This document shows positions 1,894 through 59,640 of a stretch of 64,000 bases of DNA, piece after piece. The notes beneath the pieces are model-generated. The model saw only the letters and a list, made by a program, of their open reading frames with translations, did no database searches and was not told the DNA's origin. Made by a program: the position numbers and the translations under genes. Origin of the DNA: an uncultured beta proteobacterium (GTDB lineage: Bacteria > Pseudomonadota > Gammaproteobacteria > Burkholderiales > Burkholderiaceae_C); contig CAIQOO010000074.1 in NCBI GenBank assembly GCA_903873485.1, positions 20,453-84,452 on the forward strand. Direction: 5' to 3'. Numbering within the stretch: position 1 is the first letter of the stretch; every line of letters starts with the position of its first letter.

Positions 1894-1950
1894 CCAAATC
1901 AGCCTCTAGCCCCCGTACTGTATGCGCTGATAGCTCTGTTTTTCATATCG
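1894..1950 (+). repeat. 56-bp dispersed element, copy 1 (intergenic)
   Basis: ccaaatcagcctctagcccccgtactgtatgcgctgatagctctgtttttcatatcg matches consensus CAAATnnGCCTCTAGCCCTTAT-n6-GCGC-n3-TAGCTAT-n7-ATAGCA. Confidence 0.8.
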
Positions 1951-2098
1951 TGCTAAAGTTTTTTCTTATGCGCCATGACTGCTTGCAAGGCATCAATGAG
2001 CAAATTGGGAATACTTTTTCGGGTGCGGTGACCGCTGTTCACCTCCGCTTCAAGACGATCAAAAGAACGATCACAAGGACGTTTGGCGGATTGGATGA

Positions 2099-2385
2099 TC
2101 AAAAGTACTGCCGGGCGAAGTTGGCGATTGCCAGAGCAATGACGATGCCCCACCATCCACTGCAATTTGTCGAGCTTGGCATCAAGGCCGTTCATGCGAC
2201 GCTCTACTCTAACCACATCAGCGCGCCGGGTCTGAATGTCTGCCTTGCTCGCCAGAGAAGTATCAGGCACCTCTGCAAAAGCTTCGCGCTGCGCATCTGC
2301 CTGCTGCCGCAGCAAGTTCCCGGCTTGCACCCACTTTTTCCAGGCATTCAACGAACTTCAGGGTGCCGAATGTGATGCGGCTCAT
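2099..2385 (-). pseudogene. DUF1640/CCDC90-like small membrane-anchored coiled-coil protein, two frameshifts
   Basis: Three frames join into one homolog of 3688 and 3935: MSRITFGTLKFVECLEKVGASRE / QADAQREAFAEVPDTSLASKAD...LDKLQWMVG / GIVIALAIANFARQYF-stop. Confidence 0.8.
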
Positions 2386-2590
2386 GCGCCGGAGTTTGCC
2401 TGCCCGGTGCTCCTTTTGCAGGGGCGGGCGTTGTAACAACCCCACATTGGTGCGTTCAATCCATGCCAGACGCTTGAAAACGCTTTGCGCGGATGGGCGG
2501 CTCTGTTTTAATCCACTCAGCTTCTGTTAGAGAAGTGAAACGAAGTGCGAAAAAGCGCTTCAACGAAATCAACAACTTTGGAGTAATTCA

Positions 2591-3565
2591 ATGAAAAAAT
2601 CGCTCGTCGCGCTGGCTGTGCTAGCCGCTTCCGGTGCCGCCATGGCCCAGTCTTCCGTCACTTTGTACGGTGTAGCTGATGTCGGCTTTGCAGTGGAAGA
2701 CAATGGTACAACTTCTACAACCCGCATGGATTCAAGCAACTTGAATGGCAACCGTTGGGGGCTGAAGGGTGCCGAAGACCTCGGCGGTGGCCTGAAAGCC
2801 ATTTTCGTAATCGAAAGCGGGTTTAGCCTTGACACGGGTGCTCAGGCCAGCGCGACATCGCTTTTTAACCGCCAATCTTATGTTGGAGTCAGTGGCGGCT
2901 TCGGTACCGTCAAGTTCGGACGTCAAATGAATTCCGTTTATTCAAATTCCGGCACTTTTGATCCGTTCGGCGATGCGCTGGCTGGTGATACTGCTCGCCT
3001 GCTGAACTACCAAGGCAGCCGCACCGACAATGCGATTACTTACGCCTACGCTGCCAGTGGCTTCCGTGGTGAATTCCAATACGCTTTGGGTGAGGTTGCT
3101 GGCAACAGTTCCGCCAGTCGCATGATTGGTGGCTTTGTGGGTTACAAAAATGGCCCGATCGACGTGGTTTTGACGACTCAAGACACGCGTAATGCAACCG
3201 ATACCGACAGCACCAAGGTGACCTTGTTGGGCGGAAATTACAACTTTGGCTTCGCCAAGGCGTTTTTGACCTTTGACATGGAAAAAGGCACAGGTACAAC
3301 TGACCTGCGTCACCTGGTTGTTGGTGCAACTGTTCCCATCGCTTCTGGCTCACTCATGCTGTCTTACATCCAGCGTCAAGATCAGGTAGTTGATGACAAA
3401 GATGCTGAGCAATTTGCGATTGGCTATACCTATGATTTGTCCAAGCGTACTGCGCTCTACACCAGCTACAGCCGTTTGACGAACGATGCCAAGTCTTCGG
3501 TCAAAGTCGTGAAAGCTGGCGACACAAATTCGTTGTTCAACTTGGGTGTTCGCCACTTCTTCTAA
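2591..3565 (+). CDS. outer membrane porin
   Basis: MKKSLVALAVLA signal peptide, AQSSVTLYG, NRWGLKGAEDLGGGLKA, ends VRHFF; GGAG RBS upstream. Confidence 0.95.
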   Translation: MKKSLVALAVLAASGAAMAQSSVTLYGVADVGFAVEDNGTTSTTRMDSSNLNGNRWGLKGAEDLGGGLKAIFVIESGFSLDTGAQASATSLFNRQSYVGVSGGFGTVKFGRQMNSVYSNSGTFDPFGDALAGDTARLLNYQGSRTDNAITYAYAASGFRGEFQYALGEVAGNSSASRMIGGFVGYKNGPIDVVLTTQDTRNATDTDSTKVTLLGGNYNFGFAKAFLTFDMEKGTGTTDLRHLVVGATVPIASGSLMLSYIQRQDQVVDDKDAEQFAIGYTYDLSKRTALYTSYSRLTNDAKSSVKVVKAGDTNSLFNLGVRHFF

Positions 3566-3602
3566 TCCAGCGCTGGCGCAAGCCAGTTGAAGCTGAAAGT
3601 TC

Positions 3603-3637
3603 AAAACCTCGCCCGGGCAACCCGGCGGGGTTTTTTT
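3603..3637 (+). terminator. Rho-independent terminator
   Basis: aaaacctcgcccggg-caa-cccggcggggttttttt hairpin with U-tract. Confidence 0.8.
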
Positions 3638-3687
3638 GTTGGCTATCGTCGCACACCACTTGACATCAAAATGCTAAACTTTCAGCC

Positions 3688-3954
3688 ATGTCCACCATCA
3701 CCTTTGACACTCACAAATTTGTTCGAAGACTCCAAGAAGCCGGCTTTGACGAGAAGCAAGCCGAGGGCCTGACTGAGGCGATGCGTGCAGCCATTGATGA
3801 GACTGAGTTGGTTACAAAAAAAGATTTGCAGATTGAGCTGGCACCCGTCAAGGCCGACCTGAATCTATTGAAATGGATGATGGGCGCCCTGGTCGCCATC
3901 GCCGTCGCCAACTTTTCAAAGCCGACTTTCCTTTATGGCTACCATTACTTTTGA
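3688..3954 (+). CDS. DUF1640/CCDC90-like protein (head, coiled coil, C-terminal TM anchor)
   Basis: TITFDTHKFVRRLQEAGFDEKQAE head, xTKxDL neck, KWMMGALVAIAVANFSK anchor; overlaps next start by 20 nt. Confidence 0.75.
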   Translation: MSTITFDTHKFVRRLQEAGFDEKQAEGLTEAMRAAIDETELVTKKDLQIELAPVKADLNLLKWMMGALVAIAVANFSKPTFLYGYHYF

Positions 3955-4201
3955 CACCCATAAGTTCGTTCGAAAGCTTCAAGAAGCCGGTTTTGATGAA
4001 AAACAGGCCGAGGGCCTGACGGAGGCATTGCGCGCTGCGATCGATGATTCCGGGCTGGTCACGCGGCGTGATTTGCGCGAGTTTGAGTTGCGGCTGGATC
4101 CACGATTTGAAAGTATCAAAGGGGATATGTCGCTTGTGAAGTGGATGATGGGCGCCTTGATTGCCATCTCTGTCGCCAACTTCTCGAAACAGTTTTTCTG
4201 A
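3935..4201 (+). CDS. DUF1640/CCDC90-like protein, tandem paralog
   Basis: 34 of the first 37 aa identical to the 3688 gene; KWMMGALIAISVANFSKQFF anchor. Confidence 0.8.
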   Translation: MATITFDTHKFVRKLQEAGFDEKQAEGLTEALRAAIDDSGLVTRRDLREFELRLDPRFESIKGDMSLVKWMMGALIAISVANFSKQFF

Positions 4202-4245
4202 GTGCCAAAGCCGATGAAGCAAGCCCGGCTGGCGACCGCTGTGGC

Positions 4246-6807: not shown

Positions 6808-7800
6808 CTAGGCCACCAGCGCCAGTGCGCCAAAGTCGCCGACTTTTTCACCCAGGCCGGCGCTGACCAGTTCGCAGCCATCGGTCAGTGGCGGCAACTT
6901 GCCATGAATCGCGTTGCGCAGACGCGGCAGCAGGTAGTCGCGGTGGTGCCAATAGACACTGCCGCCGATGCTGATGCGCGCCAGGTCGAGCGTGGCGATC
7001 AGGTTGTAGAGCATCCTCCCCATCACCTCACATATATCATCAATAATGGCTGTAGCCCTTATGTCACCTGCGTAAGCTGCTATAAAAAGACTAGCTGAGT
7101 CAGCGTAACCGGACGGTGCAAAACGCCGTGCCAGGGCATTGCCGGCAATCAGGCTTTCGACATCGCCGACGTTGCCGCAGCCGCACAGCGCGTCATCGTT
7201 GTCGCTGACAAAAATATGACCGGCATGACCGGCATTACCGTTTTTGCCGCGCAGCACACGGCCATCGACACACAGCCCGGTGCCAATGCCGGTGCTCCAG
7301 GTGACATAAGCACAGTTGTCCAGCGCCACACCATCAAGTTGCAAAGCGCCCCAGCGCCGCTCGGCCTCCAGCGCGCCAATCCCATCGTTCTCGACCCGTA
7401 CATGGGCAAAAGCGGCGCGCAGTGGCGCTTCTAGCAAGGCGGTTTTCCAGTCATTGGGCAAACCGCGTGCCCGTCCAGCCAGTCCGCCACAGATATTGGG
7501 CGTGGCCAGTTCGACCTGGCCACGATGGCGCACAAACGGCCCGCATGATGCCACACCGACCCGGGCAATGCGCTCCACCGGCACACCCGAAGCAGCACAG
7601 CTCTGGCCGATCAGCCGAATGATCTGCTGGCCCAGCGCATCGTTGCTGCCAGAGGTGGCAGTCGGCTCGAAAACCTTGCCGCGAACGCCTTGCGCATCGA
7701 CGATATTGACCGCTACCTTGGTGCCGCCAATATCGACACAGGCCACAGGTGCGGCGCCAACCGGCAGCCTGAAACCATCCAGCAATATATTTGAGCTCAT
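6808..7800 (-). CDS. ROK family sugar kinase-like protein
   Basis: DIGGTK ATP motif, ENDG, STGIGTG, GNAGHAGH, CGCGNVG. Confidence 0.88.
   Translation of the reverse strand: MSSNILLDGFRLPVGAAPVACVDIGGTKVAVNIVDAQGVRGKVFEPTATSGSNDALGQQIIRLIGQSCAASGVPVERIARVGVASCGPFVRHRGQVELATPNICGGLAGRARGLPNDWKTALLEAPLRAAFAHVRVENDGIGALEAERRWGALQLDGVALDNCAYVTWSTGIGTGLCVDGRVLRGKNGNAGHAGHIFVSDNDDALCGCGNVGDVESLIAGNALARRFAPSGYADSASLFIAAYAGDIRATAIIDDICEVMGRMLYNLIATLDLARISIGGSVYWHHRDYLLPRLRNAIHGKLPPLTDGCELVSAGLGEKVGDFGALALVA
7041..7096 (+). repeat. 56-bp dispersed element, copy 2 (inside ROK CDS)
   Basis: caataatggctgtagcccttatgtcacctgcgtaagctgctataaaaagactagc; AT-rich patch within a GC-rich CDS. Confidence 0.75.
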
Positions 7801-9731: not shown

Positions 9732-10541
9732 ATGTCTAACGAAACCCCTCCCGCCCTGCGCCCGCGCACTGTTTTAATCACCGGTGCGGCCAAGCGGCTG
9801 GGCCGCGAAATTGCCCTGACCCTGGCCCGCGAGGGCTGGCGGGTTGCCGTCCACTTTCGCGACTCGGTCGAAGATGCTTCTAAAACTGTAGCTGACTGCG
9901 CAAGACTGGCGGGGGCTAGCGCCTCATTTCGTGCCAATCTGGCAAATGAGACGGCGGTGCGCAACCTGCTGCCCAATGTGATCAGCCAGTTTGGCTATGT
10001 GGATGCGCTGGTCAACAGCGCCTCCACCTTTGAGCATGACACGACCGAAACCTTCAGCTTTGCCGCCATGGAAAAACACATGCGAAGCAATGCCGGTGCG
10101 GCGATTTTGCTCAGCCAGGCGCTGCATGATCACCTGCAAAGCCGTGCTGATGCCAGCGGTGTGGTGATCAACCTGCTGGACCAGAAGCTGTGGAACCCCA
10201 ACCCCGACTTCACCAGCTACACCCTGTCCAAAGCGGCACTTGAGGCGGCCAACACCATGCTGGCGATGGCGCTGGCGCCGCGCATCCGGGTGGTCGGCGT
10301 GGCGCCGGGCCTGACGCTGGCCAGCCACTGGTCCAAACCGGACAACCTAGTCGGTGCGCCGCAACCCGGTATGCTGGAATTTTCTTCCACCGCCAGCGAT
10401 GTTGCCGCCACCGTGGCGTTTGCCTTGAACAACAAGTCGATCAACGGCACCACGCTACTGGTCGATGGCGGCCAGCATCTGGCCCTGCACAATGCCGCCG
10501 CCAATCGGTCGCCTGCAGCCGCCACTGCGCACCATGTCTAA
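9732..10541 (+). CDS. SDR oxidoreductase, pteridine reductase (FolM/PTR1)-like
   Basis: TGAAKRLG, VNSAS, LLDQK, YTLSK. Confidence 0.85.
   Translation: MSNETPPALRPRTVLITGAAKRLGREIALTLAREGWRVAVHFRDSVEDASKTVADCARLAGASASFRANLANETAVRNLLPNVISQFGYVDALVNSASTFEHDTTETFSFAAMEKHMRSNAGAAILLSQALHDHLQSRADASGVVINLLDQKLWNPNPDFTSYTLSKAALEAANTMLAMALAPRIRVVGVAPGLTLASHWSKPDNLVGAPQPGMLEFSSTASDVAATVAFALNNKSINGTTLLVDGGQHLALHNAAANRSPAAATAHHV
9875..9930 (-). repeat. 56-bp dispersed element, copy 3 (inside SDR CDS)
   Basis: reverse complement gaaatgaggcgctagcccccgccagtcttgcgcagtcagctacagttttagaagca. Confidence 0.7.
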
Positions 10542-12741: not shown

Positions 12742-13743
12742 ATGAACGCTCTCTGGCCCGATACCGAAGCCGTTGCCGACGTGCAAGACGACGGACCCCG
12801 CGACACCACGGCTGCGACATTGGCATCTACCTGCGCCAAAGAATCCAAAAACGAACGCAATGCAACGCTGCGCGCCGCGCGTGAAATCAACAAGCTCGAA
12901 AAACGCCTGTGCCGCCAAGTGGGCCAGGCCATCATCGACTTCAACATGATCGAAGCGGGCGACCGGGTGATGGTCTGCATCAGTGGTGGCAAGGACAGCT
13001 TTGGCCTCCTGGACATCCTGCTGAAGCTGCAAAAGCGCGCACCAATCAACTTCGAGATTGTGGCGGTCAACCTGGACCAGAAACAACCCGGTTTTCCGGC
13101 GCATATCCTGCCCGACTACTTGCGCCAGCTCGGTATCGAGTACCACATTGAGACCCAAGACACCTACAGCATCGTCAAAAAAGTGGTGCCCGAGGGCAAA
13201 ACCATGTGCAGCCTGTGCAGCCGGCTGCGCCGAGGCATCTTGTACCGGGTCGCCGACCAGCTCAAGATCAGCAAAATCGCGCTGGGCCACCACCGCGACG
13301 ATATGCTGCACACCTTCTTTTTGAACCTGTTTTTTGCCGGCAAGCTCAAGGGCATGCCGCCCAAGCTGGTCAGCGACGACGGCGGTCACATCGTGATCCG
13401 ACCGCTGGCCCATGTGAATGAAAAAGACCTGATCCGCTGGGCCGCGCACCGGCAGTTTCCGATCATCCCGTGCAGCCTGTGCGGCAGCCAGGAAAACCTG
13501 CAACGCCAGGAAATCAAGCGCATGGTGCAGCAGTGGGAGCGCCAATACCCGGGCCGCACCGAGACCATGTTCACCGCGCTGCAAAATGTCGTGCCGTCAC
13601 ACCTGATGGATGCCCGGCGTTATGATTTCAAGGGCATCCAGATCACCGGCGCAGCCGATGCAGACGGTGACCGGGTGTTTGATGAGCAAGCGTTCCCGCT
13701 GCCCGCCTTGTCTGGTGTTGGTGTGGTGCAGTTTGGGGTTTAA
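12742..13743 (+). CDS. ttcA: tRNA 2-thiocytidine(32) synthetase
   Basis: SGGKDS PP-loop, [24 protein letters not shown]. Confidence 0.97.
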
Positions 13744-13747
13744 GTAC

Positions 13748-13803
13748 CAAATAACCTTCTAGCCCTTATGAATAAAGCGTTGATAGCTATATTTATAGTA
13801 GCA
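13748..13803 (+). repeat. 56-bp dispersed element, copy 4 (supplies start of lipoprotein gene)
   Basis: caaataaccttctagcccttatgaataaagcgttgatagctatatttatagtagca; contains ATG 13768. Confidence 0.85.
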
Positions 13804-14352
13804 AGTTCAGTCTCTGGCTGCACCGGTGTGCGGTTGGTGGACAACCAGGTCAGCAGTTTTGCAGCCAGATCCGTGGCGCCTGGTTCGAGCTACCGCTTTG
13901 AACGTCTGCCGTCGCAGCAGGCCGAGGCCGCCACGCAAGACCGTCTTGAGCGCAGCGCCGAGGCGGCGCTGGCCCGGGTTGGTCTCAAGCGGGCCGATAC
14001 GTCGGCCACGCTGATCGCCCAGGTTTTGTTGACGCAGCGGGTCGAGATCGGCTCCATCGATCGGCCCGCGTTTGGCTGGGGTTTTGGCTGGTTCGGCCGC
14101 CACGGTGGCATCAGCCTGGGCCACGGGCCGCTGTTTCCGGGGCTCGATGAGCGGCCCAATTATTGGCGCGAGGTGCGCCTGACCCTGCGCGATGTAGCGA
14201 CCCAAACCGTGGTGTTCGAGACCCGCGCCAGCCACGACGGCCCCTGGTCTGACAGCACGGCGATTGTGCCGGCCATGCTCGATGCGGCGCTGCAGGGCTT
14301 TCCCGATCCCCCGCAAGGCGAGCGGCGCGTCAATATCGAAATTGCCCGCTGA
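13768..14352 (+). CDS. DUF4136-like lipoprotein
   Basis: Signal peptide ending in lipobox VSGC; YxF-ERLPSQ, Gly-rich loop, VFETRA, AMLDAALQGFP. Confidence 0.75.
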   Translation: MNKALIAIFIVASSVSGCTGVRLVDNQVSSFAARSVAPGSSYRFERLPSQQAEAATQDRLERSAEAALARVGLKRADTSATLIAQVLLTQRVEIGSIDRPAFGWGFGWFGRHGGISLGHGPLFPGLDERPNYWREVRLTLRDVATQTVVFETRASHDGPWSDSTAIVPAMLDAALQGFPDPPQGERRVNIEIAR

Positions 14353-14488: not shown

Positions 14489-15796
14489 ATGCCCACAGAA
14501 GATACCCGCTCCGAAACCATTGATGTCACGCAGTTGCGGGTGGGCATGTACATCGAGCTTGAACTTGGCTGGATGGCGCATCCGTTTCCCACCGGCAGCT
14601 TCAAGATCAGCTCCGACAAGCAGATTGACGTGATTCGCGGGCTGGGGCTTAAACAGATTCGCTACATCCCCGGCAAAAGCGACCTTATGACGATCGCCGA
14701 ACCGGTTGCAGCGGCAGAGCCGACAGCCGCCGAGCCAACCGAAGCCGCCCCGGTTCGCGCTGACGCACAGACGCGCGACTTGCAATTGCGCAAGCAACGT
14801 AGCGACATGCTGGGCGCGCAGCAACGCGAGTTGATCGCCTGCGAGCGGCGTTACAGCCAGACGGTTCGGGCCTACAAACAGGTCATCGAGCAGGTGGAAA
14901 GCCAGCCGGTCAAGGTCATGGAGCAATGCCGCGACATGGTCGCGGGCTTTGTCAGCGAACTGCTCGGCGCCGGGGAATCGGCGATCCGATTGCTGTCGGA
15001 CGGCATGGGCGACAAGCTGGCCCTGCATCCGGTCAATGTCAGTGTCATCGCGCTGCTGCTGGGCAAATACATGGGCTTGCCAGCGGACGAGATGGCTGAC
15101 TTGGGGATGGCGGCTTTTTTGCATGATATCGGCAAATTGCAGTTGCCTGAGCGGGTGCGCTGGCAGGAAGACAACTTCTCCAGCGCCGAGCAAAAGATGT
15201 ACCAGCAGCATGTGGTCATGGGCGTGGCGCTGGCCAGACGTATGGAACTCGCGCCCGGTGCGCTGCAAGCCATTGCGCAACACCACGAGATGGTCGATGG
15301 CAGCGGTTTTCCGGCCCGGCTCAAAGGCGATGTGCTGTCGCGGCCGGCCAAGGTGCTGGCGCTGGTGGACCGCTACGAAACCCTGTGCAACCCAAGTCGG
15401 TCGACTGCGGCAGTCACCCCGCATGAGGCGCTGGCGCTGATTTTTGCGCAATTGAAACCGCGTTTCGATGCCACCGTGCTGGGTGCCTTCATTCGCATGA
15501 TGGGGGTGTATCCACCCGGCTCGATCGTGCAACTGACCGATGAGCGCTATGCCATGGTGGTGTCGGTCAACTCGTCACGGCCACTCAAGCCACGCATCAT
15601 CGTTTTTGAGGCGCGGGTGTCCAAGCACGAAGCGCTGATGCTGGACCTGGAGAGCCAGCCCGAGCTGGGCATTCGGCGCAGCCTCAAGCCAGCCAGCTTG
15701 CCGCGTGCGGCGATGGATTATTTGTCGCCACGTCAGCGCATCTGTTATTTTTTCGAGCGCGCCATTGACCCGCCAATGGAAGGGGCCGGGCCGTGA
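14489..15796 (+). CDS. HD-GYP c-di-GMP phosphodiesterase with DUF3391-like N-terminus
   Basis: LRVGMYIEL...WMAHPF N-terminus, HDIGK, HHE..DGSGFP. Confidence 0.9.
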   Translation: MPTEDTRSETIDVTQLRVGMYIELELGWMAHPFPTGSFKISSDKQIDVIRGLGLKQIRYIPGKSDLMTIAEPVAAAEPTAAEPTEAAPVRADAQTRDLQLRKQRSDMLGAQQRELIACERRYSQTVRAYKQVIEQVESQPVKVMEQCRDMVAGFVSELLGAGESAIRLLSDGMGDKLALHPVNVSVIALLLGKYMGLPADEMADLGMAAFLHDIGKLQLPERVRWQEDNFSSAEQKMYQQHVVMGVALARRMELAPGALQAIAQHHEMVDGSGFPARLKGDVLSRPAKVLALVDRYETLCNPSRSTAAVTPHEALALIFAQLKPRFDATVLGAFIRMMGVYPPGSIVQLTDERYAMVVSVNSSRPLKPRIIVFEARVSKHEALMLDLESQPELGIRRSLKPASLPRAAMDYLSPRQRICYFFERAIDPPMEGAGP

Positions 15797-43569: not shown

Positions 43570-44502
43570 CTACCGACGATCTGCTTCAACCCGGTTTCTG
43601 CCGTCGGTCTTGGCCCGGTAGAGAGCTGCGTCTGTCCGGGCCAGCAGGACTGTGACAGATTCGCCGACTTCGAGTTGGGCCACACCGAAGGAGCCGGTGA
43701 CCTGTCCGATCATGGCAAAGTCATGCAACTGCATCGATTGCCGCATATGTTCGGCGATGACAATGGCACCGTCTAAATCAGTGTTGGGACAGATGACCAT
43801 GAATTCCTCGCCGCCCCAACGCCCGATCGTGTCGGTCTTGCGCACACTTTGGCGCAGAATATTGGCGATCGAGGTCAACACCATGTCGCCCACTTGATGC
43901 CCGTGAACATCGTTGACCCGCTTGAAATTGTCGATATCGACCATCACAACCGAAAGCGACTGACCATAACGCACACTGCGCTCGACCTCGCTGAGAAAAG
44001 TGGCATCAAGCTTGTGCCGGTTGAAAAGGCCGGTCAGGCTGTCGGTGACGGAGGTCATTTTGAGTTCAATGTTCTGAAGCGATATCTGGGCGTGTGCTTC
44101 GGCCAATTCGTTCTGGACCTTTTTCAGGGTGCTGATGTCCACCGCAATGGCGTATTTGGCGGTTCTGCCGTCGAACCAGGCAATCAGCTTTTCTTGCAAC
44201 TGATACCAGTGGTCATCGGCTTCGTTGAAATGCTCAAAAATAATTTCGCCGCCGCCACAGCCGGCCTGGGTCAACTCCGGGATGCGACAAAAGGAACAGG
44301 GATCATCTGACTGGTAGATGGCCAAGTGGCAAGGCTTGCCAAGCGCCCCGGCCATGCGTTTGCGCATCGCCAGGTTGGCGGCGATGACCTCATAGGTGGC
44401 GACATCCGCGACATAAATCGGGAAAGGGATGAGGTCGAATATGGTTTGCCAATACTCGGAATCGATCACGCTGGGTAATGGCTTGTTCAATTTGGCCCCC
44501 AT
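43570..44502 (-). CDS. PAS-GGDEF diguanylate cyclase
   Basis: DSLTGLFNR, DIDNFKRVND, RKTD I-site, RWGGEEF; Cys-containing PAS N-terminus. Confidence 0.93.
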   Translation of the reverse strand: MGAKLNKPLPSVIDSEYWQTIFDLIPFPIYVADVATYEVIAANLAMRKRMAGALGKPCHLAIYQSDDPCSFCRIPELTQAGCGGGEIIFEHFNEADDHWYQLQEKLIAWFDGRTAKYAIAVDISTLKKVQNELAEAHAQISLQNIELKMTSVTDSLTGLFNRHKLDATFLSEVERSVRYGQSLSVVMVDIDNFKRVNDVHGHQVGDMVLTSIANILRQSVRKTDTIGRWGGEEFMVICPNTDLDGAIVIAEHMRQSMQLHDFAMIGQVTGSFGVAQLEVGESVTVLLARTDAALYRAKTDGRNRVEADRR

Positions 44503-45427: not shown

Positions 45428-47823
45428 GCGGCGCTCCTTGCGGTGTTTGAAAGCGGAATGCGAAAAATAAAACTTGTGCCCTGCGCGGCGCGTGATTGCA
45501 GCCGAACTTCGCCGCCCAGGCGCGTCACTTCGGCCTTCACGGCCGCCATGCCTACGCCACGCCCGGACAGCTCGGTGGCTGTCTCGCGGCTGGAAATGCC
45601 GTCGGCCAAGACCAGATCGACGAGCGACCCGTCGGTGACATTGTCGGCGGCCAGTTGCTGCGCCCGCCGGCGCAGAGCGGCCTCGTCAATGCTGGTGCCG
45701 TCATCGCTGATTTCCAGCAACAACTGCAAAGCGGTGCGGGAAATGCGGCAGGTGATGGTGCCGAGCTCGCTCTTGGCAGCGGCAAAGCGGGTTTCCGGGT
45801 CTTCGATGCCGTGGTCAACGGCATTGCGAAAAATGTGGCCCAGACTGCGCAGAAAGGAGCCGAAAACGTCCGGGTCCAGGCGAATGTCCTCGCCCTCGAC
45901 CGCCAGCGGGCCGACTTCCTTGCCCAGTCGGGCCGCGAGCTGCTGAATCAGTCGATCGAAGCCCTTCAACTCTTGGCTCAGAGAGACCCAGCGCAGTTGC
46001 GCAAGTTCGGCCGCGATGGCCCGCTGCGGCCCAGACAAGGCTGGCATTTTCAGAAACTCCGCCGCCAGTTGCTCAAAGCGTCGCGCCTGCTCGGGCGACA
46101 GGGTAACGGCACCGCCCCGGTTGACGTAATCTTCACCCAGGGCATCCATCACCGTGGCCAGGTCAAGATTGAGAAGATGAGTCCATCTGGTGGCAAAGAC
46201 CAGGGCGGCGGCGTGGCTGCCAGCCGGGCCGCCGGGCGTTTGACCTTTACGCGCCTGCAATGCGCTCTCAGTTTCATGCAGGGCGGCCGGCAGATGCTGA
46301 AAACCGAACTGATTGAACGAGCCTTTGAAGGTGTGAATGGCGCGGTAAAGGTCGGCTTCAGACTGCGTGCGCCACGGCAACTGGCCGGCCTGCGCAAAAG
46401 CGCGGAACTCATCGACGGTGGCAAAGAAATCCGGGCCATCCGTCACCGCCGCCAAAATCATCTCCATGCGCCGGGTTTCCTGGGTGACCTTTTGTGCCAG
46501 CTTGCGCGTCTCGGTCACATCGGACAACACCGCCATGATGCGGTTGTCGATCGGGATGAATTCGGCCTTGAGCATTTTGTCGGCCACCTGCAACTCGGTG
46601 GGAATGATCGACAGAAACAGCGCCTGGCGCTGCGGATCGGTTTCAGCCAGGGCATCCTGGATGCAGTCACGCATCAATTTGCGCTGCAGGGCTTGCGTTG
46701 GAAACAGCAATTCGTCCACCGCCTGCCCGGTTGGTGTGCTGCCCAGCAGGCTGATGCAGGCCCGGCTGAACTTGCCGGTGACCAGCAGGTCGGCACCAAA
46801 GGACAAAAACCCCTGGCCGGAGTTGTCGAGCAGGGCCGCAACTTGCTCAAGGGTCTGCGTCACCACCTGATGCTGCTTGGCAATCAGCAGGTTTTTCTCG
46901 CTGATCTGGTGGTTGAATTTGGCCAGCTTGCGGTTCCAGCCGGCAACGCCCAGCAGCAGCAGCCCCATGGCCCCGGCTATCTTCCACAGCAGCGCATAGT
47001 CAAAACCGTGTTCCATGCGCACCGAAATCCATTTGTTGATGATGTCGCGGCGTTCCTGGTCGCTGATCGAGTCAGCCGCCTTTTGCATGATGCCGGCCAG
47101 CAGCGGCTCGTCGTTGCGCGAGGTCACGCAAAGGTCGAGGGTGAAATCGAGCTTGCCCGAAATTTTCAGATCGAGCATGGAAAATTTCTGCAACGAATAG
47201 GCGATGGTCGGCATGGTGTCGATGTAGCCCCACAGTTCGCCCTTGCGCACCCGCTCAAGGCCGTCCTGGGCGCTCTGCACCTCGGTGATCTGAATGCCGG
47301 GGTAGCGGTTGCGCAACATGGCGACAAAGACATAACCCTTGATGATGCCGATCTTGCGCGTGCCGATCTCGGAGCCATCCTTGATGAAAAGTTCCTTGGA
47401 CTGGGTGGCAATCACCAGCGGCTCGACGATGTAGGGCCGGCTGAAATTCATCACGTCACGGCGGTTCGGGACATTCGCCGACATTGACAGGATGTCGCAC
47501 TGGCGGCTGCGCAGGGCCGCCACCGACTCGCTCCAGACCTTGGTTGGCTGCAGCACCAGCGTGATACCCAGCCGCTCGCTCATCAAGGCCATCAGCTCGG
47601 CCCCGATGCCCTCGTGCCGGCCTTTTTCGTTGATGCGCTCGTAGGGCAGCCAATCGGGCTGCACGCACATTTTGATAGGACCCTTTTGCGCCAGGTAGGC
47701 GCGTTCGGCATCGGTCAGCGCTACTTGCCCGCCTGCGGGCTGCGCGGCATTGTCGGCGGCGGCCATGCTGACATGGGCGGTCAACACGAGCCAAAGCAGG
47801 AGGAGTCGGGCGAACTGGCTCAT
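45424..47823 (-). CDS. membrane-bound histidine kinase: periplasmic solute-binding sensor, TM, PAS-like, Hpt, CheA-type HATPase, no CheW domain
   Basis: PDWLPYE SBP domain; TM WKIAGAMGLLLLGVAGW; IHTFKG Hpt; HIFRNAVDHGIE, ISDDG, SGRGVGMAAV; ends right after the HATPase. Confidence 0.85.
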   Translation of the reverse strand: MSQFARLLLLWLVLTAHVSMAAADNAAQPAGGQVALTDAERAYLAQKGPIKMCVQPDWLPYERINEKGRHEGIGAELMALMSERLGITLVLQPTKVWSESVAALRSRQCDILSMSANVPNRRDVMNFSRPYIVEPLVIATQSKELFIKDGSEIGTRKIGIIKGYVFVAMLRNRYPGIQITEVQSAQDGLERVRKGELWGYIDTMPTIAYSLQKFSMLDLKISGKLDFTLDLCVTSRNDEPLLAGIMQKAADSISDQERRDIINKWISVRMEHGFDYALLWKIAGAMGLLLLGVAGWNRKLAKFNHQISEKNLLIAKQHQVVTQTLEQVAALLDNSGQGFLSFGADLLVTGKFSRACISLLGSTPTGQAVDELLFPTQALQRKLMRDCIQDALAETDPQRQALFLSIIPTELQVADKMLKAEFIPIDNRIMAVLSDVTETRKLAQKVTQETRRMEMILAAVTDGPDFFATVDEFRAFAQAGQLPWRTQSEADLYRAIHTFKGSFNQFGFQHLPAALHETESALQARKGQTPGGPAGSHAAALVFATRWTHLLNLDLATVMDALGEDYVNRGGAVTLSPEQARRFEQLAAEFLKMPALSGPQRAIAAELAQLRWVSLSQELKGFDRLIQQLAARLGKEVGPLAVEGEDIRLDPDVFGSFLRSLGHIFRNAVDHGIEDPETRFAAAKSELGTITCRISRTALQLLLEISDDGTSIDEAALRRRAQQLAADNVTDGSLVDLVLADGISSRETATELSGRGVGMAAVKAEVTRLGGEVRLQSRAAQGTSFIFRIPLSNTARSAA

Positions 47824-49538
47824 TGCATGGCTTTTTCCAATTGCTTGAGCGACTTGGCCAGACTGAGCGCCGCCTTGTATTCGCCGCTGGCCACGGCCAT
47901 GGCCTGCTGCGCGAGCAGATAGCTGCGGTATTCGCTGCGGTGAAACTCTTCGCGTTTAGTCAGGACATCGAGTAGCTCATGGGCTTCCTTGACCTGTCCT
48001 GCCTGGGCCAGGCAGCGGGCCAGGCCGCAGCGCGCAAACAGATAGTCAGGATCAAGCGCGTAGGCCTGGCGGTACAGCGCAATGATCTCGGCGCGCGGGT
48101 GCTTCAGCCCTTCCTTGATACCGGCCAGATTGACCAGTGCCATGGGATGCTCAGGATGCATCTGTTGCAGTTGCTGCACATAACCCAGCGCCAAGCGCAG
48201 ATCGCCCGAGTCCACGGCTTCGTGCATGCGCTCGTGCAAGGCTTTGCCCGCCGGTGAAAAGGTACTCTCTTTGAATTCGTCGTGGATGCGCAGATTGGTC
48301 GTCTCGATCGTGCGCAATTCCCCTGCCATCCAGACCTCAATCGGCGCGTTGTTGTTGTGCAGTCCATGACTGCTGAGCCAGTTCAGCAGCGTCATGCGAT
48401 CGGAGTCCGACCCTTTCGGGAGCATGAGCTGCGCCTTCAGGTTTGCCAGTGCTGACGCATCACCGCGCGTTGCGCGCAGTTTCAGCACCATCAAGGCCAG
48501 GTGGCGAACCAGGTCATCGCCCAGACTGGCGGCCCGGCCCAGGTAGTCAGCATGGGCATCGCAGGCTTCAAGCAGCGCGTCCCAGCGCTGCTCCCATTGC
48601 GCGCCGGCTGGTCCCTGCGGCTTGCTGGGGATCGCCTTCACGCTGGTCATCCACTGGCTTGGAAACCACAGGGCGTGGCCGCCGGGCAGTTCGCTCTGCG
48701 GGTCTTTCGCCGCGTCGAACACGGTGCGCTGACCCTGGCTGGCGGTTTTCCAGAAAGCCGCCTTTGTTGACTCCTTCCAGGCTTTCTGCGCGGCTTTTTC
48801 GTCATCCAGGAAACGCAGCCCGGCGACCTGTGCAATGGCATCTTCCGAGCGGCGTGGTTGGGTGTGTTTGAACGTGGCGCGAAAGCCCAGGCAGCGCTCC
48901 AGCCCGTCAGACCAGCAGCGCCAGCGCACCACGCGTTCAAGGGCAAACAGGTTGTCCGGGCTGGTCTGCCAGTTGGCTTCCATCACGGCACGCGCCTGCG
49001 CCGCATCGCCGCTCAGGAACAGCGCCAGCGACAGGTTGTTGCGCGCCGACGGGTGATCAATGCCTTGCAGCACCGCCATACAGGCGGCCAGATTGTCATT
49101 GGCGAGGTGCATGCGTGACAGGTCGATCGCCTCGGCCTGCTCCAGGGTCAGCGCGCCCAGCGCGGACTCGATGCTTGGGGGCAGTGGCATATCCTGCCGC
49201 TGCATGACCGCCAGACGCTGGAGCGCGCGGCCATGCACCGCCACCAGACCGGCAGCTTGGGCACTTTGGCACAGGGCCTCAAGCGCCGCTTGGCTGCCGG
49301 GGTCGCTGAGCTGCCATTCCCAGGCCCGGGCAGCGGCTTGCATCGGTGTGCCGCAGTGACTCTCGATCTCCCAGGCCAGGCCCAGCAGGGGCTTGAAGTC
49401 GGGAAAGGACTTGCGCAGTGCTGCCAGGCGCTGGCTCGCCAGCACCTGGTTGCCACGGGCTGCCAGGCGGCTCACCGTCGTGAGCTGTTCAGCACTGGGG
49501 AGCAGAGCGTTTTTTATGTGCTTGTCGGTTTTGGCCAT
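47820..49538 (-). CDS. TPR-like helical repeat protein
   Basis: Ala/Leu-rich helical repeats such as SARNNLSLALFLSGDAAQARAVM and DPDYLFARCGLARCLAQAGQVKEAHELL; stop overlaps the kinase ATG. Confidence 0.7.
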   Translation of the reverse strand: MAKTDKHIKNALLPSAEQLTTVSRLAARGNQVLASQRLAALRKSFPDFKPLLGLAWEIESHCGTPMQAAARAWEWQLSDPGSQAALEALCQSAQAAGLVAVHGRALQRLAVMQRQDMPLPPSIESALGALTLEQAEAIDLSRMHLANDNLAACMAVLQGIDHPSARNNLSLALFLSGDAAQARAVMEANWQTSPDNLFALERVVRWRCWSDGLERCLGFRATFKHTQPRRSEDAIAQVAGLRFLDDEKAAQKAWKESTKAAFWKTASQGQRTVFDAAKDPQSELPGGHALWFPSQWMTSVKAIPSKPQGPAGAQWEQRWDALLEACDAHADYLGRAASLGDDLVRHLALMVLKLRATRGDASALANLKAQLMLPKGSDSDRMTLLNWLSSHGLHNNNAPIEVWMAGELRTIETTNLRIHDEFKESTFSPAGKALHERMHEAVDSGDLRLALGYVQQLQQMHPEHPMALVNLAGIKEGLKHPRAEIIALYRQAYALDPDYLFARCGLARCLAQAGQVKEAHELLDVLTKREEFHRSEYRSYLLAQQAMAVASGEYKAALSLAKSLKQLEKAMQ

Positions 49539-49617
49539 GATGGGTTAAATGGTTTGGATGGAAGTGCCTGTGTCAGTGCCAACACTGACATTATCGAGGT
49601 GTGCCGATAGATTTATG

Positions 49618-49674
49618 CCAAATCAGCCACCAGCCCTTATGCAGCATGCGCTTGTAGCTATAAATAAAATAGCA
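49618..49674 (+). repeat. 56-bp dispersed element, copy 11
   Basis: ccaaatcagccaccagcccttatgcagcatgcgcttgtagctataaataaaatagca. Confidence 0.85.
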
Positions 49675-49771
49675 TTCTGGCGAGCGGTTGATCAAGTGTA
49701 GTGCGGGCGATGGCGCTCTGATCTACTGGCGCAGTTGGCAAAATTGGAGTTGGTGCTGTGCTACGATGAAA

Positions 49772-50519: not shown

Positions 50520-51821
50520 TCAGGCAATACCCGGCAGCACCGCTTCCGGGGCCGGACTTGACCGGCGCGCCCGCTCGGCGGCCTGCACCGCCGCGACCCT
50601 GGCCTGATGCACCAGTTCACCCACTTTTTGGCCGGTAGCCCCCGCCGCCATTGCGCTGTCAGCTATCTTTTTTGTATCGACCTGCTGCATCACCGCGAGC
50701 ACCGCCAGCAGGTGCTGGCGCTGCGGGTAGGCCTGCCCGGTGTGGCCAAGCCGGCCGCGCGCATCGCATTCGCAGGCCAGCAGGATGTCGGTCATGCGCT
50801 GTGGCTTGCGCAGCGCATCGCAGCGCTCGAGCAGGCGCACCAGCGCGGCGGCGCCGATATCGCTGCTGCGGTGGATGTTGCTGTGTTCGCGTGCCACCAC
50901 ATCAGCGAGTTCGCGCGCCTCGACGGGAATGCGCAGGCGCTGGCAAATTCCCTTGAGCAGTTTGGCGCCGCGCTCTTCGTGGCCCAGATGGCGCGGCAGG
51001 ATGTCGGGCGGGGTGTTGCCTTTGCCCAGGTCGTGAAACAGGCAGGCCACCCGCACCGCCAGTGGCGCCTGCAGCCGGGCCGCCATGTCGAGCACCATCA
51101 TCAGGTGCACGCCGGTATCGACTTCGGGGTGGTAGTCGGCGCGTTGCGACACCCCCCACAGGCAGTCCACTTCGGGCAGCAGGCGCTGCAATGCACCGCA
51201 GGCGCGCAGCACCTCGAACAGGCGCGACGGGGTGGCATCCATCAGTCCGCGCGCCAGTTCCTGCCAGACCCGCTCGGCGACCAGGTGGTCCACCTCGCCG
51301 CTGGCCACCATCTCGCGCATCAGCGCCAGCGTTGCTGGCGCTAGCGTGAAGTCGGCAAAACGCGCGGCAAAACGCGCTACCCGCAGGATGCGCACCGGGT
51401 CTTCCCGAAACTGCGGGCTGACATGGCGCAACAGCCGCGTCGCCAGGTCTGCCATGCCACCATGCGGGTCAATCACCATTTTTGCATCAAAATGGCCTCC
51501 AGCCCTTATGCAGTCTGCGCTGACAGCTATCGCATTAATAGTAAGGTCACGGCGTGCCAGATCGTCTTGCAAGGTCACTTCAGGCGATGCATGGATGACA
51601 AAGCCGTGGTAGCCCGGCGCAGTCTTGCGCTCGGTGCGCGCCAGTGCAAATTCTTCATGGGTTTGTGGGTGCAAAAACACCGGAAAGTCTTTGCCGACCG
51701 GCACAAAGCCTTGGTCGATCAGGGCTTTGGGGGTGGCGCCCACCACCACCCAATCGCGGTCCTTGATCGCCAGTCCCAGCAAGGCATCACGCACCGCACC
51801 GCCCACCAGATAAATTTGCAT
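50520..51821 (-). CDS. cca: multifunctional CCA-adding enzyme with HD domain
   Basis: LVGGAVRD, DRDWV, RRDLTINA, EDPVRILRVARF, HPEVDTGVH, HDLGKG. Confidence 0.96.
   Translation of the reverse strand: MQIYLVGGAVRDALLGLAIKDRDWVVVGATPKALIDQGFVPVGKDFPVFLHPQTHEEFALARTERKTAPGYHGFVIHASPEVTLQDDLARRDLTINAIAVSADCIRAGGHFDAKMVIDPHGGMADLATRLLRHVSPQFREDPVRILRVARFAARFADFTLAPATLALMREMVASGEVDHLVAERVWQELARGLMDATPSRLFEVLRACGALQRLLPEVDCLWGVSQRADYHPEVDTGVHLMMVLDMAARLQAPLAVRVACLFHDLGKGNTPPDILPRHLGHEERGAKLLKGICQRLRIPVEARELADVVAREHSNIHRSSDIGAAALVRLLERCDALRKPQRMTDILLACECDARGRLGHTGQAYPQRQHLLAVLAVMQQVDTKKIADSAMAAGATGQKVGELVHQARVAAVQAAERARRSSPAPEAVLPGIA
51488..51543 (+). repeat. 56-bp dispersed element, copy 12 (inside cca)
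   Basis: caaaatggcctccagcccttatgcagtctgcgctgacagctatcgcattaatagta; antisense reads TINAIAVSADCIRAGGHF. Confidence 0.8.
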
Positions 51822-57073: not shown

Positions 57074-57077
57074 TCAG

Positions 57078-57605
57078 ATGAATTCCAATATGCTATATAT
57101 TACAGAGCAAGCTACGCATGATCTATGCGGGCTGATGGCCGATTTGCTGCTAAAGAAACACTGGCTGCTGGCAACTGCCGAAAGCTGTACCGGCGGGCTG
57201 ATCGCCGCCGCCTGCACCGACCAAGCCGGCTCCAGCGGCTGGTTTGAGCGCGGTTTTGTGACCTATTCGAATGCCGCCAAGACCGAGCTGCTCGGTGTCG
57301 ATGCCGCGCTGATCCGGCAGCAGGGTGCCGTCAGCGAGGCAGTGGCGCAGGCCATGGCCGCCGGTGCGCTGGCCCGTTCGCATGCCCAGGTGGCGCTGGC
57401 TGTCACCGGGGTGGCCGGCCCGACTGGCGGCAGTGCCGACAAGCCGGTCGGCACCGTCTGGTTTGGCTGGGCCACACCAGCCGGGGTGACCAGCGCGGTG
57501 CAGCACTTTGCCGGCAACCGCGCCGCCGTGCGCGCCGCCACGGTGCAGCATGCGCTGGCGCAGTTGCTGGGCCGGCTGCAAGCCGACCCGGTGGCTGGTG
57601 GCTGA
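57078..57605 (+). CDS. CinA C-terminal domain / NMN deamidase (PncC-like)
   Basis: [29 protein letters not shown]. Confidence 0.92.
57091..57146 (-). repeat. 56-bp dispersed element, copy 13 (encodes CinA N-terminus)
   Basis: reverse complement caaatcggccatcagcccgcatagatcatgcgtagcttgctctgtaatatatagca. Confidence 0.8.
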
Positions 57606-57631
57606 AATGCCAACAAGGGCTGGAACCTGAT

Positions 57632-58258
57632 TTGGCATCAATAGAGTGGGCATCAATTTTGGTCAACTTCTGGAGTGGCCTGGCCACCGGCCTGGCGCTG
57701 ATTGTGGCCATTGGCTCGCAAAACGCCTTTGTGCTGCGGCAGGGCATCTTGCGCGAACATGTGCTGGCGCTGGTGCTGTTTTGTGCGTTGTCGGATGCAC
57801 TGCTGATTGCCGCCGGCATTGCTGGTGCCGGTGTGCTGATTCGGGACAACCCGGCGCTGATGATGCTGACGCGCTATGGCGGTGCGCTGTTTTTGGCCAG
57901 TTATGCCGCCATGGCGGCCCGGCGCGCCTGGGCTGGCAGCCAGATGCAGATACGCCCCGCCACTGGCACCCCGCTGGCGGCGGCGCTGGCCGCGTGTTTT
58001 GGCTTTACTTTTTTGAACCCGCATGTCTATCTTGACACCGTGGTGCTGCTCGGCGCGATTGCCAACCAGCAGCCAGACCCCGGGCGCTGGCTGTTTGGCG
58101 CCGGCGCCTGTACCGGCAGTCTGCTATGGTTTTCGGCGCTGGGTTTTGGCGCCCGTTTTTTGGCGCCGCTGTTTCAGGCCAGCCAGGCCTGGCGCGTGCT
58201 TGACAGCCTGATTGCGCTGACCATGCTGACCATGGCGGTGGCGCTGCTGCGCACCTAA
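57632..58258 (+). CDS. LysE/ArgO family amino acid exporter
   Basis: LIVAIGSQNAFVLRQG, FLNPHVYLDT; start uncertain. Confidence 0.9.
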   Translation: MASIEWASILVNFWSGLATGLALIVAIGSQNAFVLRQGILREHVLALVLFCALSDALLIAAGIAGAGVLIRDNPALMMLTRYGGALFLASYAAMAARRAWAGSQMQIRPATGTPLAAALAACFGFTFLNPHVYLDTVVLLGAIANQQPDPGRWLFGAGACTGSLLWFSALGFGARFLAPLFQASQAWRVLDSLIALTMLTMAVALLRT

Positions 58259-58773
58259 ACCTCTGTACGCCCTTCGAAAAGACGGCTAATGGCCTGTCCG
58301 GGCAACCACAGTGTCAGCGGTGTATCAGGAAATTCTTCAAAGTTCATCTGGCTATAAAAATGATGAGCGCCTGCATTCTTGGCATCGACGATGACACCTG
58401 CCGAGCCTATTTCTTCTGAAAGACGATGGCAGCGGTACAGCGCATCCAGCAGCAGCAACTTGCCGATTCCCTTGCCCTGCTGGCTTTGGTCAACGGCTAA
58501 GCGGGCTAACCGCGCAACCGGTACCGGGTAATGTGGAAACCGCTTTTGCTGCTGCTGCGGCAACTGTTCCCGCCGGATGGCCGCCATGGCCAGGCTGTAG
58601 TAGCCCAGAATGGCGGCTCCCCTGGCTGCAACGTAGGTGCGGCTGATGTTCGACTCGCCGTGCTGACGGGCAAGTTGGCGCAAATAGTTGTCCAGTGCAG
58701 CCTCGCCACAGGCAAAGTTGCGGCGGTCATGATGTTTCGCCAGCGTCTCAATCTGACCATCAAAGGCCATCAT
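58255..58773 (-). CDS. GNAT acetyltransferase toxin (TacT/AtaT-like)
   Basis: HDRRNFACGEAALDNYL, YYSL, LARLAVD, QGKGIG, VDAKN. Confidence 0.9.
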   Translation of the reverse strand: MMAFDGQIETLAKHHDRRNFACGEAALDNYLRQLARQHGESNISRTYVAARGAAILGYYSLAMAAIRREQLPQQQQKRFPHYPVPVARLARLAVDQSQQGKGIGKLLLLDALYRCHRLSEEIGSAGVIVDAKNAGAHHFYSQMNFEEFPDTPLTLWLPGQAISRLFEGRTEV

Positions 58774-58780
58774 GGCATCA

Positions 58781-59077
58781 TCAATTGGCGGTGGTGCGTT
58801 GGGCACGCCAGGCCAAATAGTCCAGCGCAGCAGCTTCAAGTTTTGGTCTGGGCTTGTCGGCGTTGTCCAGCGCGGTAAAAAATGCAGCCCAATCCCGAGT
58901 TGAAAACGTCAGTGACTCGCTCTCAGCCAGAATCTGTTTGGCTCGATCCTGTGCACAAGCGATGAGAAAAGCGCTCAAAGAAACGCCAGCCGTTGTTGCC
59001 GCGCGCACGATCAGTTCCTTGATCTCAGGCGAGGTGCGCAGATCAATGCGCTCAAACGGTTGGGTCAGGGTAGCCAT
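58781..59077 (-). CDS. DUF1778 RHH antitoxin (TacA/AtaR-like)
   Basis: ERIDLRTSPEIKELIVRAA...SLSAFLI; directly upstream of the GNAT toxin. Confidence 0.9.
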   Translation of the reverse strand: MATLTQPFERIDLRTSPEIKELIVRAATTAGVSLSAFLIACAQDRAKQILAESESLTFSTRDWAAFFTALDNADKPRPKLEAAALDYLAWRAQRTTAN

Positions 59078-59194
59078 GCTTAGCTCCAGATTTGTTACGG
59101 AAAAAATACGGAATGATTGTAGGTGATCGGAGAATTTGTGGCATGCCCCGGATGTTGTGAAATCATGCGGGTGCCCACACGAATACAGGAGCCA

Positions 59195-59327
59195 GGCTCC
59201 AATGGCACTGACTTAAGCGCAATTGCTTGCCAAATTCCCCGTTCGCCCTGAGCTTGTCGAAGGGTCAAGAAGGCTTCGACAAGCTCAGCCCGAACAAAAA
59301 CCCCTTTGAGTCAGTGCCATTGGGGCC
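59195..59327. repeat. nested inverted repeats: 21-bp outer arms enclosing a REP-like hairpin
   Basis: Outer ggctccaatggcactgactta / tgagtcagtgccattggggcc (19/21); inner gttcgccctgagcttgtcgaag / cttcgacaagctcagcccgaac (20/22). Confidence 0.85.
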
Positions 59328-59350
59328 AAAGTCAAATTAAATCAAGGCTT

Positions 59351-59378
59351 TGGTTCGACAAGCTCACCATGAACGGGG
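59351..59378 (+). repeat. half REP-like element heading the tandem array
   Basis: tggttcgacaagctcaccatgaacgggg; inverted near-copy of 26481-26508. Confidence 0.75.
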
Positions 59379-59520
59379 TGTTTCACGTCAAAAACGGCGG
59401 TGTTTCACGTCAAAAACGGCGGTGTTTCACGTCAAAAACGGCGGTGTTTCACGTCAAAAACGGCGGTGTTTCACGTCAAAAACGGCGGTGTTTCACGTCA
59501 AAAACGGCGGTGTTTCACGT
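59377..59520 (+). repeat. perfect 22-bp tandem repeat, six full units plus 12 bp
   Basis: Unit GGTGTTTCACGTCAAAAACGGC starting at 59377, 59399, 59421, 59443, 59465, 59487, partial at 59509; no spacers. Confidence 0.97.
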
Positions 59521-59583
59521 TAATCTGGTGGCTGCGAAACCAGCCGACAATGTCACCGGTAAATGCTGCATAGCGACATTCGG

Positions 59584-59640
59584 TGACTATGATATATATA
59601 GCTTGCTACGCTTTATGGATAAGGGCTACAGCCATATTTT
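59584..59640 (-). repeat. 56-bp dispersed element, copy 14
   Basis: reverse complement aaaatatggctgtagcccttatccataaagcgtagcaagctatatatatcatagtca. Confidence 0.8.

Follow-up and report, generated by a model that had tools for sequence, protein, structure and literature searches.

A composite 65-bp motif dispersed through Comamonadaceae genomes and laid over native codons: a candidate for uptake- or recombination-biased drive

The window analyzed here, a stretch of 64,000 nucleotides from an uncultured beta proteobacterium (assembly GCA_903873485.1, contig CAIQOO010000074.1, positions 20,453 to 84,452 of the forward strand), carries many copies of one short motif, in both orientations, between genes, across their stop codons and inside them. 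The question that it raises is what kind of element this is and what keeps it in place. An earlier reading, made from the letters of the window (hereafter the sequence-only reading), had counted 14 copies and proposed a non-autonomous mobile element, or a recombination or nucleoid-binding signal, with a partner protein encoded outside the window. Our analysis points to a probable double-stranded DNA recognition motif of ~65 bp, specific to a Comamonadaceae clade, and we tentatively favor uptake- or recombination-biased drive as what maintains it.

Anatomy, abundance and placement

A profile was built from the 14 listed copies, and the window was scanned with it in nhmmer, with matches ranked by bit score and E-value. 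All 14 copies are recovered (32-53 bits, E 4.5e-9 to 1.2e-15), and once oriented they align with zero gaps; allowing up to three mismatches, the window contains the 15-mer GCCTCTAGCCCTTAT 9 times, where shuffles predict 0.62. Run over the whole assembly (4.7 Mb in 243 contigs, 60% G+C), the profile gives 858 matches with E<=1, of which 760 have E<1e-3, which bears out the proposed dispersed family. Nearly all genome matches (757 of 761) fit the model without an indel, the bit scores are bimodal with one mode at 35-40 bits, and ~1,800 weak or partial matches lie beyond the reversed-genome control. The strict pattern AGCCC-N11-GCGC-N4-AGCTAT is found 383 times here (215 forward, 168 reverse) and 0 times in the reversed control. 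At a density of 1 copy per 6 kb, the motif accounts for ~1% of this genome, as it does of many Comamonadaceae genomes.

The unit, first given as ~56 nt, is ~65 nt long, the 8-10 nt gained on the 5' side being an AT-rich arm (wTTwTAnRnn) that precedes CAAAT. Its consensus reads wTTwTAnRnnAAATnGGCCTCTAGCCCTTRT-n6-WGCGCTGnCAGCTAT-n2AWWn2-ATAGCA, with near-invariant blocks (AAAT, GGCCTCTAGCCCTT, GCGC, CAGCTAT and ATAGC) and free spacers between them; blocks (AGCCC, GCGC, AGCTAT, AG) hold 1.1-2.0 bits per position and the adjoining spacers 0.1-0.4. Terminal inverted repeats are missing, as had been noticed from the letters, the two ends being unrelated, and the flanks of the copies carry no information and no conserved target. 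No copy matches Rfam, either at the gathering score or at E up to 5, in keeping with the description of the family as unnamed. All copies differ from one another: median nearest-neighbour identity is 0.76 against 0.72 after column shuffling, and the pairs of greatest similarity belong to paralogous segments. The reported GCTAT-N7-ATAGC dyad does exist, yet its arms do not covary; in this dyad, as in GGnCT-nn-AGnCC and GCTG-n-CAGC, the Watson-Crick fraction equals the independent-column expectation, and mutual information is high for adjacent columns only.

Genes were called with a rough codon-usage caller whose start codons are unreliable, so that some copies counted as intergenic are really N-terminal coding sequence. 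By these calls ~375 copies lie off genes, ~170 over a gene end and 215 (28%) wholly in long open reading frames (ORFs). The host ORFs of these 215 have normal codon scores, and four stop-free frames of the motif are used, which yield Ala-rich peptides. Intergenic copies lie at a median distance of 22-33 nt from stop codons, and convergent-gene intervals are twofold enriched in them; divergent regions show no enrichment (13% vs 13%), and the intergenic copies in tandem regions have no preferred orientation (154 vs 147). Replication-strand bias was considered and rejected, as copy strand has no association with GC skew in this genome and motif strands are mixed along the complete chromosome of genome G060. 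Spacing is slightly more even than random (coefficient of variation 0.89 vs 0.97 +/- 0.04), with 30 gaps below 500 nt against 53 +/- 6.5 for random placement, and in the tenth of the genome whose codon usage is least typical copies are 2.6-fold rarer. One 1332-aa protein contains two copies in tandem, in frame and 84 nt apart, which give the repeated peptide LLxNKELxAQVQQGLEADLA; a paralogue of this protein has another copy, and the loci concerned are 42341-42524 and 37407-37472 of contig C167.

Within the window, the 14 listed positions stand as reported and the total does not, since one to three weaker copies were passed over; the profile adds one inside the cca gene at 50630-50681 (plus strand, 26.7 bits, E 2.5e-7) and two partial ones at 41634-41674 (plus, model positions 20-60, 16.4 bits, E 4e-4) and 57610-57642 (minus, model positions 3-35, 14.8 bits, E 1.4e-3). 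The gene contexts named earlier (ttcA-like PP-loop gene, purC and MazF toxin gene) agree with Pfam. Copies follow the 3' ends of four genes, the ttcA-like gene, purC, a PAS-GGDEF-EAL gene and pgpA. The first of these copies, at 13741-13807 (plus, 46.5 bits), contains both the ttcA-like stop codon (gene 12742-13743) and, for a DUF4136 lipoprotein gene (13768-14352; both Pfam), the ATG with signal-peptide codons; the region 13741-13830 carries the first 11 signal-peptide codons (MNKALIAIFIVA) of that lipoprotein. The copy at 18237-18304 (plus, 50.1 bits) lies 30 nt past the stop of the PAS-GGDEF-EAL gene (15793-18207; Pfam), the copy at 29861-29926 (plus, 46.5 bits) begins 3 nt past the stop of purC (28938-29858; SAICAR_synt, Pfam), and the copy at 57087-57154 (minus, 45.0 bits) lies at the junction of pgpA and cinA. 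One copy at 30956-31022 (plus, 44.7 bits) is upstream of an antitoxin-MazF pair, and another at 31681-31743 (plus, 32.2 bits) covers the last codons and stop of the MazF toxin gene (31359-31691; PemK_toxin, Pfam). Four more are intergenic: 1887-1952 (plus, 48.0 bits), 3' of a porin gene (573-1655, Pfam) and abutting a minus-strand ORF at 1953-2351; 43346-43410 (minus, 33.9 bits), by rough gene calls between the minus-strand ORFs 42858-43322 and 43570-44502; 49611-49677 (plus, 53.1 bits), upstream of a TPR gene (47820-49538, minus; Pfam); and 59584-59648 (minus, 47.3 bits).

Conservation across lineages and overlay on codons

Carriers of the motif are found in some Comamonadaceae genera only. 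Its strict pattern occurs in 15 of 24 congeneric genomes (1-104 copies each, 12 genomes having at least 10), and 16 other families of the order lack it. When one genome per genus of the family is taken, ~18-20 of 150 genera have at least five matches, and named records with the motif belong to Rhodoferax, Polaromonas, Hylemonella, Acidovorax, Curvibacter, Variovorax, Giesbergeria, Diaphorobacter and Paracidovorax. In translated comparison the flanks from this genome come nearest to records of Rhodoferax (up to 90-94%), so that the source is probably a member of that genus. One bin each of Undibacterium and Kapabacteria gave a single match, perhaps through a binning error, and a scan of a phage collection gave no match. 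Lineages have dialects of their own, with AGCCCTTAT here, AGCCCCCGT in G005, GCGCTGGCAGCTAT in G060 and a dialect in G096 too, and some congeners keep remnants of the right length without the motif, for example in proA of G014 and G001 and in cinA of G016, G004 and G015. The motif was also seen in class 1 integron cassettes on IncP and IncF plasmids, within small reverse-strand ORFs (plasmid pYKBP039, LC623924.1, 2360-4001; C. freundii pNFYY361-2, 2999-3047); the IncP plasmid has six paralogous cassettes of ~320 bp after blaIMP-1, each with its own attC. Its presence there may mark a Comamonadaceae origin of the cassettes.

Positions are conserved between genomes. Of 63 copies taken from other Comamonadaceae genomes, all with flanks that are syntenic here, 41 are matched by a copy in the corresponding interval here against 15.5 expected (p ~1e-11). 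Identity across the orthologous pairs is 0.86 in the blocks, 0.45 in the spacers and 0.41-0.48 in the flanks; since the spacers are 0.32 identical with permuted pairs, the orthologous pairs share ancestry. Of 24 intragenic copies of other genomes, 18 have a copy here at the matching site, in most cases gaplessly. Amino-acid identity under intragenic copies is 52%, compared with 68% beside them, and identical residues use the same codon in 70% of cases within the motif vs 57% beside it (p 6e-5). The motif is thus constrained as DNA inside genes, beyond the level of the protein.

In several genes, the motif is laid over native coding sequence without lengthening it. The hscA gene has equal length in 23 genomes, including those of five other families; motif DNA stands at one site in this genome and six congeners, where motif-free congeners have ordinary GC-rich codons, and the protein retains the family pattern D-[ST]-V-[AT]-F-x-[AT]-x-L-[ST]-G-A. 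In hscA of two congeners (G009, contig C26, 30378-30451; G010, contig C128, 30300-30373), ~72 nt extra stand at residue 254, absent in other genomes. Four of the 14 window copies are intragenic, in a ROK-family sugar kinase gene, a FolM-type short-chain reductase gene, proA and cca, and a fifth, the copy at the pgpA-cinA junction, covers N-terminal cinA codons. The ROK copy (7034-7097, plus, 37.4 bits; antisense in the minus-strand gene 6808-7800) lies in a gapless alignment to glucokinase 3vov, and one of its free spacers encodes the conserved G-D of an A-G-D-x-x-A helix. The reductase copy (9871-9938, minus, 43.6 bits; antisense in the plus-strand gene 9732-10541) shows indels of 1-2 residues against 5tgd and no 22-residue insertion. 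In cca (50520-51821, minus), the copy at 51479-51546 (plus, antisense, 52.1 bits) shows six extra residues relative to 1vfg, and its dyad end encodes the conserved R-R-D-L-T-I-N-A.

At the fifth site, the stretch from the pgpA stop to the conserved start of CinA, which is itself N-terminal CinA coding sequence, measures 50 nt in five motif-free congeners among the 22 congeneric junctions compared, and 50 nt also in two congeners whose copies are strong (36.7 and 47.5 bits); intermediates exist. In the window (57074-57140) the cinA-like gene probably starts at an ATG ~5 nt past the pgpA stop, not at 57135, and several congeners have a pgpA stop and a cinA start that share the letters ATGA.

The copy in proA (26575-27942, minus) lies in sense at 26965-27031 (minus, 41.8 bits). 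In many congeners and a Polaromonas bin, a second copy was seen over the conserved N-terminal helix of ProA (A-K-x-A-S...K-N-x-A-L), with no change of length (loci L123 1548-1604, L130 1548-1605, L134 2713-2770, L087 2069-2129 and others); the N-terminal helix in this genome has no motif copy. When the 100 kb around proA of the complete genome G020 were compared with the window, proA was the sole shared gene.

What maintains the motif

Because its blocks are fixed, its spacers free, its arms unpaired and its strand unpreferred, with constraint at orthologous sites, the motif is most simply taken as duplex DNA read by a protein. Among the proposals of the sequence-only reading, a DNA signal with a partner protein encoded elsewhere is, judging by sequence, the most plausible mode. 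A putative trans-acting protein would read the fixed blocks and ignore the spacers, and copies would arise and persist at the DNA level, not mainly by transposition. Inside genes, the blocks would come to overlie native codons through synonymous and conservative substitutions, with essential residues left to the spacers; between genes, copies would be created beside gene ends. If better-matching DNA were preferentially taken up or recombined, motif-improving alleles would spread, and such drive would give each lineage its own dialect and let the motif decay in lineages without the system. Within coding regions, uptake sequences are strand-unbiased, stable in position, formed by substitution, rare in acquired DNA and more evenly spaced than random (PMC2817400). 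Codon overlay, dialects, decay, rarity in foreign DNA and even spacing all match these properties and could be explained by molecular drive. We infer from this both the protein reader and drive, rather than per-site selection, as the force at work, and hold uptake- or recombination-biased drive as a leading candidate that is nearly as easily right as wrong. The genome encodes DprA, two minor pilins of ComP_DUS type and an intact 836-aa ComEC; the pilins and ComEC are uninformative here since nearly all genomes of the order have them. Competence-gene loci were noted at C172:9499-9798, C208:17307-17522 and C14:8611-9414, and DprA has an in-frame motif copy at residue 123.

Several observations weigh against drive of this kind. 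Intergenic DNA is strongly preferred, as 28% of copies lie wholly in genes of a genome that is ~85% coding. The proA gene is an exception to overlay without lengthening: its copy sits in a loop that exceeds that of motif-free relatives by 19-26 residues and is common to at least 10 congeneric species, with decayed remnants of the right length in three species. In 18 of the 22 cases where a copy of another genome has no counterpart here, the interval of the other genome is the longer one (median +98 nt), which is partly to be expected of any interval with room for a 65-nt motif. One presence/absence case is a clean difference of 63 nt, or 21 codons, beside a start codon, and block gain or loss of intergenic copies is conceivable. 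Across the 24 congeners, the presence of ComP_DUS pilins, ComEC and Y1 transposases bears no relation to the motif, and we found no report in the literature of natural transformation or uptake specificity in these genera. To our knowledge, no uptake signal described so far reaches more than about a fifth of the motif's length, and the information in the copies found, roughly 45-50 bits, is far above that of uptake signals. Finally, per-site selection for a chromosome-organizing protein would give nearly the same pattern.

This last point is the strongest of the rivals: the copies would be binding sites of an abundant protein of chromosome organization or topology, kept by purifying selection site by site, every few kb and preferably at the 3' ends of transcription units. 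A role of this sort, in binding gyrase, IHF or another nucleoid protein, has been proposed for repetitive extragenic palindromes (REP) and the mosaic elements that they form (BIME). The closeness of copies to stop codons, their enrichment in convergent intervals and the retention of blocks at orthologous sites would fit it well, as would the AT-rich tracts of the left arm, which lie about one helical turn apart, and the lack of strand bias and covariation, which fits duplex recognition. Spacing is also somewhat more even than random, but the regularity is weak and a spacing requirement is not evident. Information of ~45-50 bits greatly exceeds the specificity of any known nucleoid protein, and the motif has been lost by about half of the congeners, decaying there with no obvious replacement, which is unexpected for an essential site. 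No candidate protein was found, and we regard an architectural site as somewhat unlikely.

An old non-autonomous mobile element with a unit of 63-66 nt, resembling MITEs (miniature transposable elements with inverted repeats), REP doublets (REPINs) or Rickettsia palindromic elements (RPEs), is less probable again, and we think it distinctly doubtful. Intragenic copies would in this case be in-frame insertions that were later trimmed. Its fixed length, near a multiple of three, the clean 63-nt difference, the tendency of copy-bearing intervals to be longer, the extended proA loop and the copies within plasmid integron cassettes all suit such an origin, and the lineage variants could be replicating subfamilies. 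As the main mode, however, the mobile element proposed by the sequence-only reading does not hold, given copies that differ, orthologous sites shared across genera and overlay without lengthening. Unlike a MITE, the motif has no terminal inverted repeats, no clear target duplication or conserved flanking target, and no near-identical recent copies beyond those in paralogous segments; the clean 63-nt presence/absence case shows no target duplication. The decay of a neutral insertion yields no pattern of constrained blocks and free spacers at orthologous sites, and hscA, the ROK kinase and reductase genes and the cinA N-terminus show no change of length. Random insertion cannot explain why essential residues, such as the G-D of the ROK kinase and the x-L-[ST]-G of HscA, fall in spacers, and copies are depleted in foreign DNA.

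A Y1 transposase of the REP-associated kind (RAYT) was rejected as a partner of the motif, since a Y1_Tnp gene of 237-250 aa is present in 24 of 24 congeners regardless of the motif. In this genome the single RAYT-like gene (C11:2487-3197, upstream of gltB) is flanked by another repeat, GGCACTGACTTAAG. This second, unrelated family (C11:2300-3400; window positions 59204 and 11737) comprises 75 copies of GGCACTGACTTAAG and ~16 of GGGGTCAGAGTC, and together with the RAYT-like gene it is probably the true REP/RAYT pair of the genome. The BRE repeat (Hot et al. 2011), described as tandem, GC-rich, 75-91 bp long and present in these genera in 4-29 copies, appears to be a different family. Templated rewriting of the diversity-generating-retroelement or retron type was set aside by reasoning, as neither an adenine-template signature in the spacers nor a lagging-strand bias is seen.

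The geometry of GCTAT-N7-ATAGC fits a LysR-type T-N11-A operator, and the sequence-only reading had proposed such a box or a recombinase core site; an integron attC is weighed with them here. The MazEF pair is bracketed by two direct copies. We consider all three very improbable. Unlike LysR operators, which usually have a divergent lysR gene beside them, the ~760 copies stand in either orientation by stop codons, between convergent genes or, for 28%, inside genes, not upstream of regulated promoters. The recombinase cores R'' and R' (RYYYAAC/GTTRRRY) are absent from the consensus, and in the two plasmid integrons separate canonical GTCTAAC...GTTAG attC sites bound the motif-bearing cassettes, the motif itself sitting in cassette ORFs. 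Hundreds of recombinase sites in both orientations would be unstable and would scramble the chromosome, yet positions hold across genera. Least probable of all is a role in RNA, as a terminator, an mRNA-stabilizing hairpin or a small RNA module built on the dyad: copies do lie near stop codons and the folding energy z-score is ~-1.2, but it has this value on both strands, orientation relative to the upstream gene is unbiased, the 5-bp stem has an AT-rich loop and no T-run, intragenic copies occur on either strand, there is no Rfam match, and zero covariation in all three dyads rules the hairpin out.

Known repeat systems and wider meaning

The closest likeness is to the DNA uptake sequences (DUS) of Neisseriaceae and the uptake signal sequences (USS) of Pasteurellaceae, which also have hundreds to thousands of copies on both strands, in-gene copies in tolerant frames that arise by substitution rather than insertion at poorly conserved residues, stable orthologous positions, lineage dialects, rarity in recently acquired DNA, spacing more even than random and frequent placement just 3' of genes (PMC2817400). 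The motif departs from them in its length and build (65 bp in five blocks, as opposed to a core of 9-12 bp with at most ~30 bp of context) and in its density (1 per 6 kb, not about 1 per 1 kb), and some of its presence/absence differences look like block gain or loss. With REP/BIME and REPIN-RAYT systems it shares hundreds of short copies at gene 3' ends and in convergent intervals, long vertical persistence and decay where the system is lost; unlike them, it has no compensatory hairpin, 28% of its copies are intragenic, and the RAYT-like gene, with its GGCACTGACTTAAG flanks, does not co-vary with it. The RPEs are likewise an old dispersed family, both intergenic and in frame in intact genes, for which no transposase is known. 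They are said to have been described by Ogata and co-workers in 2000 as insertions of 100-150 bp that lengthen the host protein. In contrast, most of the genes tested here show little or no lengthening (proA excepted, and six residues in cca), and the motif is not wholly palindromic.

Pieces of the family have been recorded before. Tong et al. 2017 (PMC5217627) listed significant spaced pentamer pairs as potential novel motifs and proposed no function; among them are GCTTAT-N5-AAGCG, with 114 copies in Acidovorax ebreus, and GCTAT-N6-TATAG and ATAGCT-N22-CAAAAG, with 125 copies in Polaromonas naphthalenivorans. Rhodoferax ferrireducens T118 tops all genomes of that survey in significant pairs (140, with 34% in genes), and the pairs lie near gene ends, often between convergent genes (PMC5217627). 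These pairs are pieces of the motif family described here; the 65-bp composite unit, the family-wide distribution, the conservation of orthologous sites and the codon overlay are not in that paper. It is possible, though we put it less firmly than drive itself, that the motif is a third independent family of uptake or recombination signals, a 65-bp composite of freshwater and soil Comamonadaceae whose drive has recoded hundreds of genes.

A single long motif thus constrains codon choice in housekeeping genes and holds its positions across genera. As a marker of origin for Comamonadaceae DNA, it bears on the source of class 1 integron cassettes. Should the architectural reading be the true one, the motif would define a new nucleoid protein system. 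Should an uptake-type signal be true, such signals could far exceed the length assumed for them, a 65-mer bait would offer a direct handle on the receptor, and gene exchange would be sequence-biased in a large, ecologically dominant freshwater and soil group.

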